The notes: generated by a model not told the origin, from the sequence alone. 27,678 nt of DNA from a virus (IMGVR_UViG_2698536372_000020); one strand, 5' to 3'. Positions 15,608-22,657 are shown, counted from the first letter of the stretch. Made by a program: numbers and translations.

Positions 15608-16165
15608 CTAGAGACTCTCTCCTTCCTCATCAGGAATTAATTCAGCAGCACAAGCCTCGTAGGATTTTTCCTGAAGAGTGTATCGCAGGTCATCAATGGC
15701 CTGCTGTACAACGCCGACGGCCTGAGGAGTCAGGGCGCAATCGCGTTCAAGAACATCCGGAATTGTCTCCAGAACCTGGACGACAGCCTTTCTCATGGAC
15801 GAATAGACGATGACTACTTCATCAACGGGGATGAGTTTTCGCTGCTCCTTTTCCAGCTTGATCCTTTCATTTTCAGATTGGTACCAGTCCTTTCTCTCTT
15901 TCGGCTCCATACGGGATGGATCATGAACAGAGTCTGCTGCCTCATGCTTCACACTAAACAGGGCTGGCCCGACATGCTGCAGGGCGTAAACGGGGTTCCC
16001 CCTGACAGTCGCAGCCACAGGAGTGTTAGCCGCGAGGAGCCGTTTTTTTACTGTGTCCCGGTGAAGCCCAAAGGCCTCAGCGATTTTAAAAACACTCCAG
16101 TAATAAGCATCACCGATCCCGCTCACATTTGACATAAGCAACTCCATCTGGCAGGTGAAAATCAT
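15608..16165 (-). CDS. Terminase small subunit (lambda Nu1-like DNA packaging protein, N-terminal HTH)
   Basis: HTH-like segment SVFKIAEAFGLHRDTVKKRL near the N-terminus; C-terminus ...AELIPDEEGESL echoes lambda Nu1 ...DELIPGLL. The true start may be an internal Met (MELLMSNVSG, GGAG upstream). Confidence 0.75.
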   Translation of the reverse strand: MIFTCQMELLMSNVSGIGDAYYWSVFKIAEAFGLHRDTVKKRLLAANTPVAATVRGNPVYALQHVGPALFSVKHEAADSVHDPSRMEPKERKDWYQSENERIKLEKEQRKLIPVDEVVIVYSSMRKAVVQVLETIPDVLERDCALTPQAVGVVQQAIDDLRYTLQEKSYEACAAELIPDEEGESL

Positions 16166-16319
16166 GTTTATTTATATATTTCAATTAATTGCAAACTGGT
16201 CTAATGACAGGGAGAAAGAAATATTGTACAGGTGAAAAGAGAAATAACTTTTAATTATCAATAAATTACCAAACATGCTGCCGCCGCCATGGAAATGCAA
16301 AAACTAGCCTTTTTCCGCG

Positions 16320-16331
16320 ACGCTCCCGCCC
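16320..16331 (-). other. Candidate cosN-like cohesive-end site (minus strand GGGCGGGAGCGT)
   Basis: Matches 8 of 12 positions of the lambda cosN sequence GGGCGGCGACCT as I recall it, about 160-200 bp upstream of the Nu1-like start, where cos is expected. Speculative. Confidence 0.3.
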
Positions 16332-16360
16332 CGTGGCAGGGGCCCCCACCGGGAGGACCC

Positions 16361-16383
16361 GACAGCCTGACAGCCTGACAGCC
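16361..16383. repeat. Short tandem direct repeat, GACAGCCT x2 plus partial third copy
   Basis: Read directly: gacagcctgacagcctgacagcc, next to the cos-like GC-rich segment. Confidence 0.7.
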
Positions 16384-16519
16384 GTGATGAGCATCTGATA
16401 CAGCGCTTTACATAATGGCATAGGAATAATTCAGAAGGACATCACAGCATGCCCACACAAATTAGTGTGAGTGTCCTGTTTCTTCCTACGCACAGGACTG
16501 ACGAGCATGAGGGGAAAAT

Positions 16520-16687
16520 ATGCGAACCATAAATGCCTCATCTTCAGCAATGCAACCGGCATCCGAACAGGACGATATTGTAAATTCACCTAATTACGAG
16601 GACATTGCAGTAGTTGAATTGCAGCTCTGTATTAGCCTGACAGTGACAGAATGCGATATTGACTCTGTCACAGGTGAAATAGTTTGA
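16520..16687 (+). CDS. Candidate small protein, 55 aa (MRTINASSSAMQPASEQDDIVNSPNYEDIAVVELQLCISLTVTECDIDSVTGEIV); not in the ORF track because it is under 60 aa
   Basis: ATG at 16520 preceded by GAGGGG 5-7 nt upstream; open to TGA at 16685-16687; converges on the 68-aa minus-strand gene with a 20-nt gap. Confidence 0.3.
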   Translation: MRTINASSSAMQPASEQDDIVNSPNYEDIAVVELQLCISLTVTECDIDSVTGEIV

Positions 16688-16707
16688 ATGATTAGCAGTT
16701 ATGGTGC

Positions 16708-16914
16708 TCAGTCAACCACCAGGGAATAATCCTTCGAATTCTTATCGTGCTTCACCAACGCTGCCTCAATTGCCCTGAATGCTTCCAGAGACACCTGATG
16801 TTCTATACATGCAATTACAACATCCGGGTAACTCATAGAAATGGTGCTATTAAGCATATTTTTTACACGAATCAGATCCAACGAGACTTCATCAGCAGAT
16901 TGTTCTTTATTCAT
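16708..16914 (-). CDS. Hypothetical 68-aa protein (moron; possibly YnfO-like by position)
   Basis: ORF with ATG at 16914 preceded by GGAG at about 8 nt spacing; acidic, soluble-looking; no recognisable motif. Confidence 0.55.
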
Positions 16915-17214
16915 TTTGTCGCTCCATGCGTTTGCTCGTCATCTAGCGGTTAAAATATTACTTCAAATCTTACTGCATAAAAGAGGAAAAGTATGAAAGT
17001 TTGAGTACATCGACCTTACATACATCTGTCGGTTGCATATCCCTCCTGGATGCCAGCAAGGCTCAATTTTGTTACGCAATCAACACTATTCATTAAAAAC
17101 AGGCTTAATATTTGACATAAATCATCAACAAAACACAAAGAGGTCAGACCAGATTGAAACAATAAACACGATAATGCTAACTACGCGCCATCGTATCACA
17201 TGGAAGGTTTACCA

Positions 17215-17625
17215 ATGGCTCAGGCTGCCATTTTTAAAGAAATATTCGATCAAGTGCGTAAAGATTTAAACTGTGAATTATTTTATTCTGAGCTAAAACG
17301 TCACAATGTCTCACTTTATATTTACTATTTAGCCACAGATAATATTCACATTGTGTTAGAAAACGACAACATAGTGTTAGTAAAAGGACTCAAAAAGGTT
17401 GTAAATGTTAAATTCTCCAGAAACAAACATCTTATAGAGACCTCCTATAATAAGTTGAAATCAAAAGAAATCACATTTCAACAATACAGGGAAAATCTTG
17501 CTAAAGCAGGAGTTTTCCGATGGGTTACAAATATCCAGGAACACCAAAGATATTACTATGCCTTTGATAACTCATTACTATTTACTGAAAGCATCCAGAA
17601 AACTACACAGATCTTACCACGCTAA
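17215..17625 (+). CDS. ydfO: DUF1398-family protein, YdfO-like
   Basis: Start placed at ATG 17215 ([43 protein letters not shown]...), with GGAAGG 7 nt upstream, giving 136 aa. Assigned by recalled similarity and by position next to the GnsB-like gene. Confidence 0.65.
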
Positions 17626-17633
17626 ACCATAAC

Positions 17634-17662
17634 GTCCGGCTTCTCTCACTCCTGAGCCGGAC
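17634..17662 (+). other. Stem-loop (8-bp stem gtccggct / agccggac, 13-nt loop) between the convergent ydfO-like and gnsB-like genes; possible terminator
   Basis: Inverted repeat read directly; weak T-tract; location between convergent genes. Confidence 0.3.
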
Positions 17663-17776
17663 TGCATTGGTTTAATAAAAACCATCAACAATTGTGATTT
17701 AGATATTCGGAACCATTCAAATATAACAAAACCCCGAAAAAACGAGGTTTATGGATAAATTTTATTATTGAATACA

Positions 17777-17950
17777 TCAGATTAAATTAATCTTGACATC
17801 ATAGCTTTCAAGACCCGTCATTTTTTCCCGTGCGGTAAACTGAATACTGGTAACTTCTTTCCCGGTCTTTTTCTTAAGTTCAATAATTTTTTTTGTTATA
17901 TATTCAGAAATATCTGCTTCTGCTTTTGTTTTTAAGTTTTCAATATTCAT
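17777..17950 (-). CDS. gnsB: GnsA/GnsB-family small protein, 57 aa; not in the ORF track
   Basis: Reverse-complement translation M(M)NIENLKTKAEADISEYITKKIIELKKKTGKEVTSIQFTAREKMTGLESYDVKINLI, stop at 17777-17779, SD AAGAGGAA upstream. Matches the Gns family as recalled. Confidence 0.75.
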   Translation of the reverse strand: MNIENLKTKAEADISEYITKKIIELKKKTGKEVTSIQFTAREKMTGLESYDVKINLI

Positions 17951-18121
17951 CATTTCCTCTTTTAGTCTGTTATGACTTTCCAGTTACACAGTAAGTCGAT
18001 TATATGGTGCAAACGTGTAAAAGATAAGATGAAACATCGCAATAATCAACATACGATAGTCTAAATTTTACACAAACAGACAAAGAGAATTTTCCTGAAT
18101 TATCAATACAATAGCATCAAA

Positions 18122-18352
18122 TCAACTCAAGAGCCTTATTGCTGCTTCCAGAATTTCTTCTGAAGTAACATGTCGATCCGCGGCTACATAAATGACTTTA
18201 TGATCTCCGGTCAGAGATGGAAACCCTGCGGCCATTACAGTAAGGTGTGTTTTTTCGCCATTTGGATATTCACGCATGATGGTGTTAACTCCAGTCATCG
18301 CTGGCACTACCACTGCTGGTTCAGAGTTAAAAAAAACTATGATTTTTTTCAT
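18122..18352 (-). CDS. Hypothetical 76-aa protein between the GnsB-like gene and cspI
   Basis: Start placed at internal ATG 18352 (MKKIIVFFNSEPAVVVPAMTGVNTIMREYPNGEK...). The track TTG start at 18394 lies inside the upstream terminator T-tract. Confidence 0.5.
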   Translation of the reverse strand: MKKIIVFFNSEPAVVVPAMTGVNTIMREYPNGEKTHLTVMAAGFPSLTGDHKVIYVAADRHVTSEEILEAAIRLLS

Positions 18353-18396
18353 GATGTTACCGTAGTATGTGAGTATCCATCGAATAGATACCAAGC

Positions 18397-18416
18397 AAAA
18401 AAGCTCCCGAAGGAGC
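18397..18416 (-). terminator. Intrinsic terminator downstream of cspI
   Basis: Minus strand: 5-bp GC stem with UUCG-type tetraloop (GGCTCC-TTCG-GGAGC) followed by six T. Confidence 0.5.
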
Positions 18417-18623
18417 CTTCATTTTCACTTTTTTAAATCCAACGACAGACGGCTGGCATTTAAGTATTGTGAAATATTATCAAATGTAATCATCATTGAT
18501 TTACAAAAGATACATTTTGCCCCGAAAGGATTCATGTCAGAAACATCAAAAGATGATGTTCTATACTGGGAACCATGACAACACGGGCATCTAAAGTGAA
18601 TATGGTTTGTAATATTGTCTACC

Positions 18624-18836
18624 TCAAAGCGCCACTACATGAACAGCGGCAGGACCTTTAGGTCCGTTCTCAATACCAAATTCAACTTCCTGATTCTCAG
18701 TTAATGTTTTGAAATCGTTGCTCTGAATTGCTGAGAAATGGACAAACACATCTTTGCTGCCATCTTTCGGCGTGATGAAACCAAAACCTTTTTCAGGGTT
18801 AAACCATTTCACTAAACCAGTCATTTTGTTAGACAT
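18624..18836 (-). CDS. cspI: Cold-shock protein, CspA family
   Basis: 70-aa [73 protein letters not shown] with RNP1/RNP2-type motifs; long 5' leader typical of csp genes; matches CspI as recalled. Confidence 0.9.
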
Positions 18837-19198
18837 AATTATTACCTTTTGAAGAAATTAGCCCTTGGGCAGAATGGTCCGAAAAAAAATATCAGAGAGA
18901 AAAACCAACAAGGAAATCTCAAGAGGTACAAATAATAAAATTATAACAATGACTGCTTCAGATAAATTTGTAACAAACCAGAACACCATTAACGCATGAT
19001 TAACCACCCATAGCAAGGATTACTTTTGTAAAGAAAAACACAGCAATGAAAGAATAGCTTTATTTATTAATAAAACGTGTCATTCTGATTAAGACCTTTT
19101 ATCTTACCCTTAAGATTTCAGGAATTTTGGCTCATGGAAGAGTCCTTTTTATTTAAATTTTACATTCCGCGATGTAAATGTTCCGATTTAATATTACC

Positions 19199-20222
<1,024 letters not shown>

Positions 20223-20754: not shown

Positions 20755-20943
20755 ATCCTCACCCCGATGTACACGGATGGTGCAATATGTTTGAAAAAGA
20801 TCGGAGTCTACGGGGTAGTTTTGACAGCACACGTTGTTCTCAACGGCGCTAAAGAAACATACACATTAAAAATGTGAGTAATTATTTTGAAAGAAAGTCA
20901 TATATAAAATAATAATACGAGAAATGTTTTCATATTTAGTGTA

Positions 20944-20964
20944 CTGTATACGGCCATTATACAG
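20944..20964. promoter_or_regulatory. Inverted repeat CTGTATA-N7-TATACAG overlapping the RBS of the zinc-ribbon gene; possible operator or translational control hairpin
   Basis: 7-bp perfect inverted repeat read directly, 10-30 nt upstream of ATG 20974. Confidence 0.3.
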
Positions 20965-20973
20965 GAAAAGCCT

Positions 20974-21144
20974 ATGTCAGAACGTAAAGACTCAAAATCA
21001 CGCCGTAATTATCTCGTTAAATGTTCCTGCCCAAACTGCACCCAAGAGTCAGAACACAGTTTTTCAAGAGTACAAAAAGGTGCCCTTTTGATCTGCCCTC
21101 ATTGCAACAAAGTATTCCAGACAAATCTTAAAGCTGTAGCCTGA
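20974..21144 (+). CDS. Small zinc-ribbon protein, 56 aa (two CxxC pairs), YnfU-like; not in the ORF track
   Basis: ATG 20974 with AGGAAAAG SD; MSERKDSKSRRNYLVKCSCPNCTQESEHSFSRVQKGALLICPHCNKVFQTNLKAVA; stop 21142-21144. Confidence 0.6.
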   Translation: MSERKDSKSRRNYLVKCSCPNCTQESEHSFSRVQKGALLICPHCNKVFQTNLKAVA

Positions 21145-21206
21145 TTGATTTTATTAGTAACAAGTATTTTTTATATTTTAATAATATATTTAAAGCAGAT
21201 AATAAA

Positions 21207-21226
21207 AAACCCGCCTGAGCGGGTTT
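21207..21226 (-). terminator. Intrinsic terminator (8-bp stem, 4-nt loop) with A-tract on one side and T-tract on the other; likely terminates cspB and may act in both directions
   Basis: aaaaaacccgc-ctga-gcgggttt read directly; on the minus strand the stem is followed by TTTTTTATT. Confidence 0.5.
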
Positions 21227-21507
21227 GAGATTGTGGTGCTTTTTGTGGGAGTCATCCACTTACGCACTTTGTTTTGCGATGCCAGCAGTTAGCTTCTGCT
21301 GTGAAACTATTCATGCAGCAAACCTGCACTTCACCACAATGGTTAGCATACTTTTCCTGATTAAGATTTTGCCAAATATGCTAGCCATTGTTTCATGTAT
21401 TGGACCTCCTTACTTTTTATTAAAGAGATCCAATATTCACTACTCTGTCCGTATCTCTACTCAGGCATCAGCCTTCTTCGTTATCGTATACAGACGAGCG
21501 ATGAATT

Positions 21508-21723
21508 TTAATCAGTAATGATGACATTTGCTGCTGCAGGACCTTTAGCACCTCTCTCTATAGAGAAGGTAACCTTTTGACCTTCAAATAAGGTTCGATA
21601 ATTATCATTCTGAATCGCAGAAAAATGCACAAACACATCTTTACTACCATCAACAGGAGAAATAAAGCCGAAACCTTTATCAGCGTTAAACCATTTTACT
21701 AAACCAGTCATTTTATTTGACAT
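21508..21723 (-). CDS. cspB: Cold-shock protein, CspA family
   Basis: 71-aa [74 protein letters not shown]; matches CspB as recalled; divergent from cspF. Confidence 0.9.
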
Positions 21724-22023
21724 TCTACATTCCTTAACTTGAGCCTTTCGGCATAAATGGTTTGCATAACAGAAACGACTTCGTACTTAATTGGAGAGAC
21801 TCAAAGAAGGAATAAGTGAATAACACCTGAAATGAGAACTGCTTTAGTAAACTACTTCGTATATCGTCTGTTCTTCAAACCGACGCAATCATTAACGCAT
21901 AGTTGAACATATGAAGCAATGTTTATTTTAGACATCCAGCCATCTTCAACCCCATCAAAAAACTATAGCTTTCTTCAGGAACGTGTGTATAGTGCGCCAA
22001 GTTATCAGTATTAAGGAATTTTT

Positions 22024-22236
22024 TTGTCCCGTAAAATGACAGGAATTGTCAAAACCTTTGACGGCAAAAGCGGCAAGGGTCTTATCACCCCATCCGATGG
22101 TCGTATCGATGTCCAGCTTCATGTTTCAGCGCTCAATCTCCGCGATGCAGAAGAAATTACCACCGGATTACGCGTGGAATTTTGCCGGATAAATGGTCTG
22201 CGTGGCCCTTCAGCTGCCAATGTTTACCTTTCATGA
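22024..22236 (+). CDS. cspF: Cold-shock-domain protein, divergent CspF/CspH type
   Basis: 70-aa [73 protein letters not shown]; apparent TTG start at 22024; resembles CspF as recalled. Confidence 0.85.
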
Positions 22237-22290
22237 GCTATATTAAAGCTTTAATTTCAGGCCCCATCGGATCACACATGGAGAGTTTTT

Positions 22291-22380
22291 ATGAATAACC
22301 CCGTCTGTCTTGATGACTGGTTGATTGGCTTTAAAAGCTTATGCTGTACTTTGGCCGTAATAGCTCTGCTAATAATATAA
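22291..22380 (+). CDS. Candidate 29-aa hydrophobic peptide ([29 protein letters not shown]) downstream of cspF; not in the ORF track
   Basis: ATG 22291 preceded by GGAGAG about 7 nt upstream; C-terminal half is a predicted membrane helix; stop at 22378-22380. Confidence 0.3.
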
Positions 22381-22528
22381 TAAGCAGACTCATTGTGTTT
22401 AGGGACATTGTACTGGAAGAAAACATTTTAAACATCAGGCAAATAACCAAGTCACCAGCTAAATAATAAGTTAACAGACATGAGTCCCGGGATGAGATTC
22501 AACATTACCATTGCCCCATTTAAAGCAC

Positions 22529-22552
22529 AAAACCCGCTCATCAGCGGGTTTT
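22529..22552. terminator. Strong bidirectional intrinsic terminator: candidate tR' for the late leader (minus strand) and terminator for cspF (plus strand)
   Basis: Perfect 10-bp stem aaaacccgct / agcgggtttt with 4-nt loop, followed on the plus strand by a T-rich run; lies about 40 nt downstream of the predicted late promoter start. Confidence 0.5.
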
Positions 22553-22597
22553 CTACTTTTTCTTAACGTCGGGTATACAAAGCCCATCGTTGAAAAA

Positions 22598-22626
22598 ATT
22601 TTATCCATATTTTTTGAAAAATGCAA
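22598..22626 (-). promoter_or_regulatory. Candidate Q-dependent late promoter (pR'-like sigma70 promoter; the qut site would overlap)
   Basis: Minus strand -35 TTGCAT (22626-22621), 17-bp spacer, -10 TAAAAT (22603-22598), about 30 bp downstream of the Q stop, as in lambdoid pR'. Confidence 0.5.
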
Positions 22627-22657
22627 ACATCATGTCGCCATCTTCAGCAAAAATCAT

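Follow-up and report, generated by a model that had tools for sequence, protein, structure and literature searches.

The morons of the prophages of adherent-invasive Escherichia coli (AIEC) strain LF82, the third of which is phage Tritos, have been defined by RNA-seq (PMC9928086). Related small genes are found in the K-12 prophage Qin, in the order nohA-ynfO-ydfO-gnsB-ynfN-ynfR-ynfQ-cspI-rzpQ; at the right end of phage lambda and of prophage DLP12, in the order Rz-bor-ybcV(p78)-ybcW(p79)-(ylcI)-cos-nu1; and at the chromosomal locus cspG-ymcF-ymcE-gnsA. Here, we analyze a viral DNA of 27,678 nucleotides (IMGVR_UViG_2698536372_000020), referred to as a whole as the window, and in particular its interval 16166-18416, which lies between a terminase gene and cspI. 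The interval had been predicted from sequence to be a single AT-rich island of morons without assigned mechanism, with phage-phage exclusion or host modulation as plausible functions. We find that it is in all likelihood a mosaic of three unrelated pieces, namely packaging DNA, the divergent pair ybcW/DUF1398 and the distal two thirds of a cold-shock cassette, and that it contributes to lysogenic conversion of the host and not to phage exclusion. Its morons probably serve adaptation to cold and of membrane lipids.

Tritos (OV696610) is the best match among isolated phages. It has the same genes and the same cos position, and is 99.7% identical over 93% of a query comprising positions 16166-18620; it differs by a few single-nucleotide polymorphisms and in its annotation, which gives a 51-aa form of ynfN and no ynfR. 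Qin shares with the window the gene order, the spacing, a hairpin referred to below as T1 and the gnsB terminator, and its GnsB, YnfQ and CspI proteins are 100% identical to those of the window (YnfR, 95%). It differs in that ynfO (DUF3950) and ydfO (78% identical to the DUF1398 protein) replace ybcW and the ybcV-type DUF1398 gene, and in that its ynfN is frameshifted (51 aa). Furthermore, Qin has a lambda-type nohA remnant, whereas the window has an intact DUF1441 small terminase subunit and a 699-aa large subunit. In lambda and DLP12, the divergent pair is ~90% identical to that of the window at the DNA level, and the PdhR box, a conserved spacer downstream of ybcW and the cosN/cosQ motifs are shared. 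Unlike the window, however, both carry bor and lack the cold-shock cassette, ylcI separates ybcW from nohD in DLP12, and the cosB region and small terminase (Nu1) of lambda differ in family from those of the window (DUF1441). Finally, the cspG locus resembles the window in having a cold-shock domain (CSD) gene, a YmcF-like zinc-ribbon protein with an ATT start, a hairpin after the stop codon, a 76-aa open reading frame (ORF) and a Gns protein, with identities of 79% for CspI/CspG, 66% for YnfQ/YmcF and 65% for GnsB/GnsA. In this case, the 76-aa middle gene is instead the hydrophobic YmcE, which overlaps both of its neighbours, there is no 170-nt gap or separate -10 element before gnsA, and the locus lies outside any prophage.

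Composition of the junction

A megablast search of positions 16166-18620 against complete E. coli genomes gave a match of 100% identity over the full length to NC_013361.1 (O26:H11 strain 11368; 2145071-2147525), and many O26:H11 chromosomes match in the same way. Some part of the query is present in 3410 of the 5426 genomes and at least 80% of it in 440, while phage lambda matches 16562-17644 at 89.5%. By these similarities, the window is a lambdoid prophage of E. coli O26:H11, and the interval is probably the right end of a Tritos-like virion with cos-type ends. All the named genes of the interval are carried in the RefSeq annotation of the O26:H11 match. The flanking genes are as originally claimed: the small terminase subunit (DUF1441/phrog_141; RefSeq, 15608-16135, minus strand, start ATG at 16135) stands on one side and cspI on the other, with the lysis genes beyond it.

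The described shift from GC-rich to AT-rich DNA is real, the GC content being 0.379 over 16166-18416 and 0.54 in the packaging genes, but the limits drawn for the island do not hold. The true AT-rich tract extends from ~16600 to ~19200 (GC 0.357) and takes in cspI and its 5′ untranslated region (UTR)/leader. The first 400-540 bp of the interval are not AT-rich moron DNA; they contain the cos site, whose core (16280-16400) has a GC content of 0.645. The morons themselves have a GC content of 0.36, compared with 0.54 and 0.47 in the flanks. On the right, position 18416 is the end of a hairpin inside ynfR and thus cuts this gene. Both ynfR and ynfQ had been overlooked, and the interval stops short of two parts of the same transcription unit, ynfQ and the cspI leader.

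The genes that had been listed, encoding a 68-aa YbcW-like protein, a DUF1398 protein, GnsB and the 76-aa YnfN, are all real. Their orientation hardly alternates, since DUF1398 alone is on the plus strand. Shine-Dalgarno (SD) sequences are found before ybcW, DUF1398 and gnsB, as claimed, but not before ynfN. Of the several terminators described, one is canonical (after gnsB); a hairpin without a canonical U-run follows DUF1398, and a hairpin with a U-tract lies inside ynfR.

We aligned the junction with Tritos, DLP12, lambda, Qin and related prophage loci designated L009, L010, L011 and L012. Its content varies: L010 and L012 have ybcW without DUF1398, Qin has ydfO without ybcW, and DLP12 and lambda are without the cold-shock block, so that each of these genes can be dispensed with, as expected of morons. 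The cold-shock block moves as a unit, while ybcW and DUF1398 are separable. Thus, the junction is not a single island but a cos site with two independently assorting modules. The morons also have transcription signals of their own, namely the gnsB terminator, T1, a cspA-type leader and a TATAAT element, the promoters among these being predicted. Taken together with the AT-rich tract and the RNA-seq data from Tritos described below, this variability bears out the moron reading in substance.

A mobile cold-shock cassette

The cassette has the order cspI-ynfQ-[T1 inside ynfR]-ynfN-gnsB, of which ynfR, ynfN and gnsB are the distal part. It is a conserved mobile unit that travels as a block and has the cspG-ymcF-ymcE-gnsA locus as its chromosomal paralogue. 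The block (17700-18990) is present in 2152 of 5426 complete E. coli genomes (~40%), 2094 of which hold at least 80% of it, and the whole block is found in seven isolated-phage records. Citrobacter prophages with an unrelated lysis cassette have kept CSD-YmcF-YnfN-GnsB adjoining a DUF1441 terminase, and more distant loci retain CSD-YmcF-YnfN. In a survey of 80 YmcF-like loci from Enterobacteriaceae, a CSD gene is directly upstream in 51, and a terminator-like hairpin occurs within 70 nt of the stop codon in 51; its stem arms come in 27 versions. The hairpin is present in each of the 23 loci that have gns downstream, and between the two lies YnfN (13 loci) or YmcE (9 loci).

The head of the cassette is cspI with its cspA-type thermoregulator leader (RF01766; 18597-18982, minus strand; coding sequence 18624-18836). 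The match scores 112.8 bits (gathering threshold 78) and lacks the 3′ terminator hairpin of the model; thermosensing is predicted. With a permissive E-value, an Rfam search of 16100-19300 returned the cspA thermoregulator alone, and no small RNA (sRNA) or anti-sRNA family. The CspI protein is 100% identical to that of K-12. The next gene, ynfQ (18425-18613, minus strand; ATT start at 18613), encodes a 62-aa protein that RefSeq names 'cold shock small protein YmcF'. It matches PF23641 (E 7e-32, 109.9 bits, gathering 27), has two CxxC motifs (CPCC...CIFC), and is thus YmcF-like, being identical to K-12 YnfQ. The genes are closely packed, with gaps of 10 nt between the cspI stop and ynfQ, 2 nt between the ynfQ stop and ynfR, and 4 nt between the ynfR stop and ynfN. 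The SD of ynfQ (GAGGT) overlaps the cspI stop codon.

The ynfQ stop is immediately followed by T1 (18396-18420, minus strand; -14.5 kcal/mol), a hairpin of the form GAAGGCUCC-UUCG-GGAGCUUUUUU followed by a U-tract. The 21-aa ORF ynfR (18357-18422, minus strand; RefSeq) is read across it. T1 is 100% conserved in Qin-type loci, and elsewhere its stems vary with compensation, reading AGGCCCC-TTTTT-GGGGCCT in Citrobacter and AGGCTCC-CTCGT-GGAGCCT at the cspG locus. The ORF is less constant, being cut to 12 codons by a stop in L010 and L012 and absent in Citrobacter, whereas the hairpin is retained in all. At the cspG-ymcF locus, it is the N-terminus of YmcE that is translated across the hairpin. 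YnfR (MKAPSGAFLLG...) and the N-terminus of YmcE (...RLPRGAFFIS...; K-12, L005 2348-2400) both translate the terminator hairpin and U-tract, and the 'GAF(F/L)' motif that they share is set by RNA structure, not by protein function.

The ynfN gene (18122-18352, minus strand; RefSeq) encodes 76 aa in the window. A T run near 18329-18336 has eight residues here and in other strains but seven in K-12 (NC_000913.3, ~1638110-1638190), so the 51-aa K-12 YnfN is a frameshifted remnant, and the 76-aa protein is the intact form. The first 25 residues of the protein remain conserved at identities as low as 52%, into Citrobacter, with K3, F7, F8 and N9 invariant. Without an SD and only 4 nt past the ynfR stop, the ynfN ATG is suggestive of translational coupling. 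The predicted fold is soluble and beta-rich, and no fold relatives were found. YnfN was also considered as a diverged YmcE, to which it shows no similarity.

The last gene, gnsB (17777-17950, minus strand), encodes a 57-aa protein of the GnsA/GnsB family (PF08178; E 3e-35, 120.2 bits, gathering 27, residues 2-55 of 58) that is 100% identical to K-12 GnsB; the structures 4XO1 and 4XO2 in PDB are of GnsA. Its SD is AAGAGGAA. A terminator scan and folding placed an intrinsic terminator after the gene (17729-17750, minus strand), consisting of AAACCTCG-TTTTTT-CGGGGTTT with a T-rich tail, which is conserved in K-12 Qin, L009, L010 and L012. A candidate gnsB promoter lies ~45 nt upstream, with a perfect -10 element TATAAT (17999-18004, minus strand) that is conserved in five aligned loci and a weak -35 element. 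A scan for the sigma-70 consensus found fewer sites than in shuffled sequence and called no promoter for gnsB or ybcW, so the promoter assignments rest on conservation and RNA-seq.

The window holds a second AT-rich moron cluster (20755-22657; GC 0.38) between the Q antiterminator gene and the holin gene. It contains cspB, cspF and ynfU, and a second cspA thermoregulator (21492-21884; 161.6 bits). The lysis cassette therefore has cold-shock genes on both sides.

Expression in a lysogen

Expression values were taken from supplementary tables S1/S4 of PMC9928086 and come from the 99.7%-identical Tritos lysogen (LF82), not from the O26 strain. They are given as the approximate mean log2(fpkm+5), fpkm being fragments per kilobase per million mapped reads, for conditions B1/B6/BLB/MB1/MB6 in this order. 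The highest gene of the interval is gnsB (9.9/12.2/8.0/11.2/10.0; range 7.6-12.3). Values for cspI are 9.3/9.0/9.7/12.6/11.3 (range 9.0-12.7), for ybcW 6.8/9.0/5.0/9.9/9.7 (range 4.7-10.0) and for ynfN 6.0/6.2/5.5/8.1/7.0 (range 4.8-8.4), while DUF1398 is marginally above background (2.8/4.1/3.1/4.8/4.6; range 2.8-5.2). The neighbouring lysis and terminase genes lie at 2.3-4.5. Since cspI, gnsB and ybcW are thus 30- to 500-fold above adjacent genes that are silent, these published data establish autonomous expression of the morons in the Tritos lysogen. Moreover, ynfN is ~10- to 30-fold below cspI, which indicates that T1 stops most transcripts, and gnsB is 4- to 64-fold above the upstream ynfN (~64-fold in B6), so that gnsB must have a promoter of its own.

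Further expression data come from K-12. Azidothymidine (AZT) co-induces cspI, ynfQ and ynfN 6.5-, 5.9- and 5.8-fold, with SspA dependences of 38-, 42- and 51-fold (PMC11228462). Expression of cspI and ynfN changes in parallel from one growth phase to the next, and a cspI knockout is outcompeted in long-term stationary phase (PMC7406224). YnfR fused to a sequential peptide affinity (SPA) tag is strongly induced by cold shock (PMC6001520), and cold-shock induction is reported for both YnfR and YnfQ (PMC6001520, PMC11228462).

It should be noted that PMC9928086 (Table 1/S1) gives, among the morons of Tritos, a 'YnfN, 27-fold above background' (LF82_0907, CU651637.1 1610202-1610375) whose coordinates and length of 174 nt are those of gnsB. 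Table S4 of the same paper names LF82_0907 GnsB. The labels in S1 seem to be shifted by one gene because the LF82 annotation is without ynfQ.

The names given to GnsB suggest another role. PF08178 is called 'GnsA/GnsB toxin' and RefSeq uses the label 'addiction module toxin', so that gnsB could be the toxin of a toxin-antitoxin (TA) module that stabilises the prophage, with YnfN as its antitoxin in the manner of YmcE for GnsA. The pair ymcE-gnsA is indeed listed among type II TA pairs (PMC8484670), and overexpression of gnsB raises persister counts and lowers ATP (bioRxiv 10.1101/310961). YnfN takes the exact position of YmcE and has the same length of 76 aa, and one or the other precedes gns in 23 of 23 surveyed loci. 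The resemblance ends there: the window has no YmcE homologue that could act as a type II antitoxin, the similarity between YnfN and YmcE is nil, and the soluble beta-rich fold of the former differs from the hydrophobic YmcE. The excess of gnsB over ynfN transcripts, from a separate promoter, is the opposite of the antitoxin excess that a TA pair calls for, yet the cells grow. Plasmids carrying gnsA or gnsB rescue growth and do not kill, and 13 of 26 YnfN loci have no gns gene at all. We therefore give the addiction module only a slim chance of being the correct explanation.

A lytic role deserves somewhat more credit, although it too is unlikely. The minus-strand genes cspI, ynfQ, ynfR, ynfN, gnsB and ybcW are co-oriented with Q, the lysis genes and the terminase genes, and would be the last in the Q-antiterminated late transcript before cos. 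They could condition the cell, by RNA chaperoning and membrane fluidity, for late expression, packaging or lysis at low temperature. In lambda, Q-modified polymerase reads through terminators. Retention of the block in seven plaque-forming or induced phages fits such a role, as does the cspB and cspF cluster between Q and the holin gene. On the other hand, the uninduced lysogen expresses these genes strongly, with the neighbouring late genes at background level; a paralogue of the cassette exists on the chromosome, outside any phage; and defective prophages such as Qin have also kept the cassette. These observations favour a role in the lysogen, with which a lytic role may coexist.

The ybcW and DUF1398 genes

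To the left of the cassette is the divergent pair. The ybcW homologue (16708-16914, minus strand) encodes a helical 68-aa protein of the lambda p79/DLP12 YbcW type that is 91% identical to K-12 (DLP12) YbcW and matches phrog_657; RefSeq lists the protein as hypothetical. The SD of the gene is GGAG. The DUF1398 gene (17215-17625, plus strand) encodes a 136-aa member of the YdfO/YbcV/YcgX family, matching PF07166 over profile positions 1-119 of 119 (E 1.7e-43, 147.9 bits, gathering 22). It is 90% identical to YbcV and 78% to YdfO, the solved structure of which (2HH8 in PDB) it matches with E 1e-69. Its SD (GGAAGG) serves the RefSeq start, ATG 17215, whereas the other possible start, an ATG further upstream (17200), is without one. 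DUF1398 is the sole real gene antisense to phage late transcription. After its stop lies a GC-rich hairpin with a 9-bp stem (17634-17662, plus strand; -20.1 kcal/mol, z -2.97) and no canonical U-run.

Between the two genes is the putative PdhR operator ATCTGGTCTGACCTCTT (17138-17154, minus strand). It has one exact match in the window, with 0 expected by chance, and is identical to the ybcV/ybcW site of DLP12 identified by genomic systematic evolution of ligands by exponential enrichment (gSELEX) in PMC7660256. In a K-12 pdhR mutant, ybcV mRNA is down 10-fold and ybcW mRNA 8.9-fold, both genes being activated by PdhR (PMC7660256). The exact operator suggests that the pair is wired into the regulation of host carbon status, and ybcW and DUF1398 thus appear to be a separate moron under control of the host pyruvate sensor PdhR. 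The ybcW/DUF1398 block occurs in 2688 E. coli genomes, with at least 80% of it in 1402.

In LF82, ybcW (LF82_2580) is ~30-fold higher in macrophages at 6 h than in LB stationary phase (PMC9928086, S4; MB6 vs. BLB, log2 fold change 4.94, q 8e-32). It is also up in B6, with a log2 value of ~9.0 compared with 5.0 in BLB. B6 is undefined in the table header and is taken here as bacteria without macrophages. If so, the rise would be an effect of medium or carbon source, which fits PdhR control, and not specific to macrophages.

The AlphaFold2 model of YbcW, of moderate confidence (predicted local distance difference test score, 74), has 3-4 helices and no Foldseek match at E < 7, and there is no match to the protein in Pfam, NCBIfam or PDB. 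An exhaustive HMMER search of 1.84 billion representatives found no distant family, all relatives being at least 49% identical. Hundreds of database 'YbcW' proteins are encoded on ~3.5 kb contigs of the European Nucleotide Archive (ENA) and differ by scattered errors. These contigs resemble an assembled 3.6-kb amplicon of lambda, the control DNA of nanopore sequencing, and the apparent size of the YbcW family is therefore inflated.

Phage exclusion or anti-phage defence, which the original prediction had proposed for the island, would most plausibly reside in this pair or in YnfN. The junction is a variable moron site, YbcW, DUF1398 and YnfN are without known biochemistry, and ybcW is expressed in the lysogen. 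In addition, one phage-resistant mutant of avian pathogenic E. coli (APEC) had lost ydfO among other genes (PMC8711792), and the DUF1398 protein has a weak PADLOC match to a type II restriction-enzyme model (REase_II; E 3e-4, 18.3 bits). The latter spans only 80 residues of a 313-position model, with nothing similar in the annotation of 2HH8, and the APEC case is one mutant that lost several genes at once. None of nine proteins matched a defence-system model of PADLOC significantly, the further best matches being YbcW to Mem_04 (12.4 bits) and CspI to a generic CSD model. The proteins are tiny, without enzymatic or sensor domains, and lambda itself carries ybcV and ybcW homologues. We know of no exclusion phenotype for this part of lambda. 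The proposal of phage-phage exclusion thus finds no support, and we regard it as very improbable compared with a function in the lysogenic host.

The cos site and the left spacer

As far as sequence comparison can tell, positions 16136-16707 are packaging DNA, made up of cosB, cosN and cosQ and a conserved non-coding spacer. In its linear record, the Tritos genome starts at the cohesive end with GGGCGGGAGCGTCGCGGAAAAAGG, which is the reverse complement of window 16320-16331 and of the adjoining bases on the left. The right end of the record meets the window at 16332, so that the termini map to 16331/16332. This identifies the putative cosN cohesive end as GGGCGGGAGCGT (16320-16331, minus strand), in agreement with an alignment to the lambda cos junction, where 9 of 12 positions match GGGCGGCGACCT. 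The small terminase coding sequence of Tritos starts at nt 197, and the same spacing of 196 nt is found in the window, which predicts that the spacer from cosN to the small terminase start (16136-16319, minus strand) is the equivalent of cosB. In the alignment to the lambda right end, the heptamer GGGTCCT (16354-16360, minus strand), 22 nt from cosN (23 nt in lambda), aligns with lambda 48473-48479, which we take to be cosQ. The phage ends beside the small terminase gene, the G-rich 12-mer and the conserved cosQ-like heptamer all point to a lambda-type cos site.

Beside the cosQ-like heptamer is a tandem repeat of GACAGCCT (16361-16383), with 2.9 copies in the window and Tritos and one copy fewer in L009, L010 and L011. 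Downstream of ybcW lies the inverted repeat GTGACAGA-N13-TCTGTCAC (16643-16671). Its arms do not differ between the window, Tritos, L009-L012, DLP12 and lambda (~47990-48020), while the loop is variable. It folds at -15.5 kcal/mol (z -1.7) with no U-tract after it, and is possibly a protein-binding or packaging-related site.

An unlisted 55-aa ORF (16520-16687, plus strand) had been counted among the genes of the island. In L010 and L011, which are ~90% identical, its ATG is replaced by ACG and the frame has two 1-nt deletions; the L012 homologue has a deletion and a stop; and in lambda and DLP12 the homology is limited to the 3′ half, with +1/-1 indels. The NCBI Prokaryotic Genome Annotation Pipeline (PGAP) makes no call at this DNA in 30 of 30 genomes sampled across the whole similarity range. 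The only family that the ORF matches in databases, phrog_4035, derives from automatic annotation of phages. Because the start is lost and the frame shifted in close relatives, and PGAP calls no gene, we judge the ORF to be a chance reading frame in conserved non-coding DNA. It was also compared with YlcI/YnfO (DUF3950), the protein at that position in DLP12 and Qin, and showed no similarity.

Discussion

The claim that the products of the island are without assigned mechanism needs to be qualified. All the genes are named in RefSeq, GnsB has a phenotype, YnfR and YnfQ are induced by cold, ybcV and ybcW are activated by PdhR, and the structures 2HH8, 4XO1 and 4XO2 are available. Of the follow-up analyses that had been suggested, profile searches resolved DUF1398, GnsB and YnfQ (PF07166, PF08178 and PF23641) but not YbcW, structure prediction gave no fold relatives of YbcW or YnfN, and the comparison of junctions separated the modules. 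The claim does hold for YnfN, YbcW and DUF1398, which have no assigned biochemistry.

What is known of the Gns proteins concerns membrane lipids. Plasmids with gnsA or gnsB rescue the cold-sensitive growth of relA fadR strains, and gnsA restores 16:1 and 18:1 fatty acids (bioRxiv 10.1101/2024.03.27.586906, PMC10607373). Overexpression of K-12 GnsB, to which the protein of the window is identical, is described as increasing unsaturated fatty acids and suppressing both fabA6 and the cold sensitivity of a secG null (Sugai 2001, as cited in bioRxiv 10.1101/2024.03.27.586906 and PMC10607373). According to PMC10607373, it is not known how GnsA acts at the molecular level.

Starting from the observed gene identities, compact spacing, cassette linkage and conservation of T1, we propose the following course of events. 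On a temperature downshift, and under some other stresses, the cspA-type leader would stabilise and open the cspI mRNA. Ribosomes would pass from cspI to ynfQ by coupling, as the overlap of the ynfQ SD with the cspI stop codon suggests. Most transcripts would end at T1 and a minority would read through, after which ynfN would be translated by reinitiation 4 nt past the ynfR stop, while gnsB would be transcribed mainly from its own promoter. GnsB would then shift membrane lipids to unsaturated acyl chains and acidic phospholipids, i.e. homeoviscous adaptation. The net effect would be a lysogenic conversion to the benefit of the bacterium at low temperature, in stationary phase and within host cells. 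Two elements of this scheme are inferences, namely the action of T1 as a regulated attenuator and the change of lipids in a lysogen by GnsB at its native level. By analogy with lambda, the minus-strand genes, which are in the path of Q-antiterminated late transcription, should be expressed in lytic growth as well.

Several points weigh against this proposal. The Tritos lysogen expresses gnsB strongly at 37°C, uncoupled from cspI, so this gene may not be cold-specific at all; the LF82 data are all from 37°C and include no cold shock of this prophage, and our literature search found no paper with direct cold induction of gnsB itself. Every lipid phenotype of GnsB comes from multicopy overexpression, and its molecular target is unknown (PMC10607373). 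The attenuator role of T1 is drawn from anatomy and from expression ratios in another strain. In addition, the lack of assigned biochemistry for YnfN, YbcW and DUF1398 means that the purpose of two of the three modules is only partly explained.

Everything in the interval is already annotated, and the same region of a near-identical phage has already been described as carrying morons. The least ordinary feature is the conserved architecture csp-ymcF-terminator-(ynfN/ymcE)-gns. Cold leads to fresh synthesis of Csp proteins, which open RNA hairpins and have transcription-antiterminator activity. One could therefore imagine that T1 in ynfR is no plain terminator but a conserved attenuator gating the distal genes of the mobile csp-ymcF-T-(ynfN/ymcE)-gns cassette, with Csp proteins and/or ynfR-translating ribosomes allowing read-through into ynfN as a feed-forward to the membrane-lipid response, and with YnfN as a new partner or regulator of GnsB. 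We put this forward as a speculation that is more likely to be wrong than right by a wide measure.

As a discovery, the locus carries little weight, since its genes are named, their arrangement recurs across thousands of genomes and the morons of this region have been profiled in a near-identical phage. For the annotation of these prophages, the results have a housekeeping value, in that the cos site falls within the interval, the 55-aa ORF is best left out of annotations, YnfN is intact at 76 aa and a remnant in the K-12 reference, and cspI-ynfQ-T1-ynfN-gnsB is a conserved, mobile cassette with a paralogue on the chromosome. If the attenuator idea were true, it would provide a small, testable link from the RNA-chaperone response of the Csp proteins to a prophage-borne adaptation of membrane lipids.

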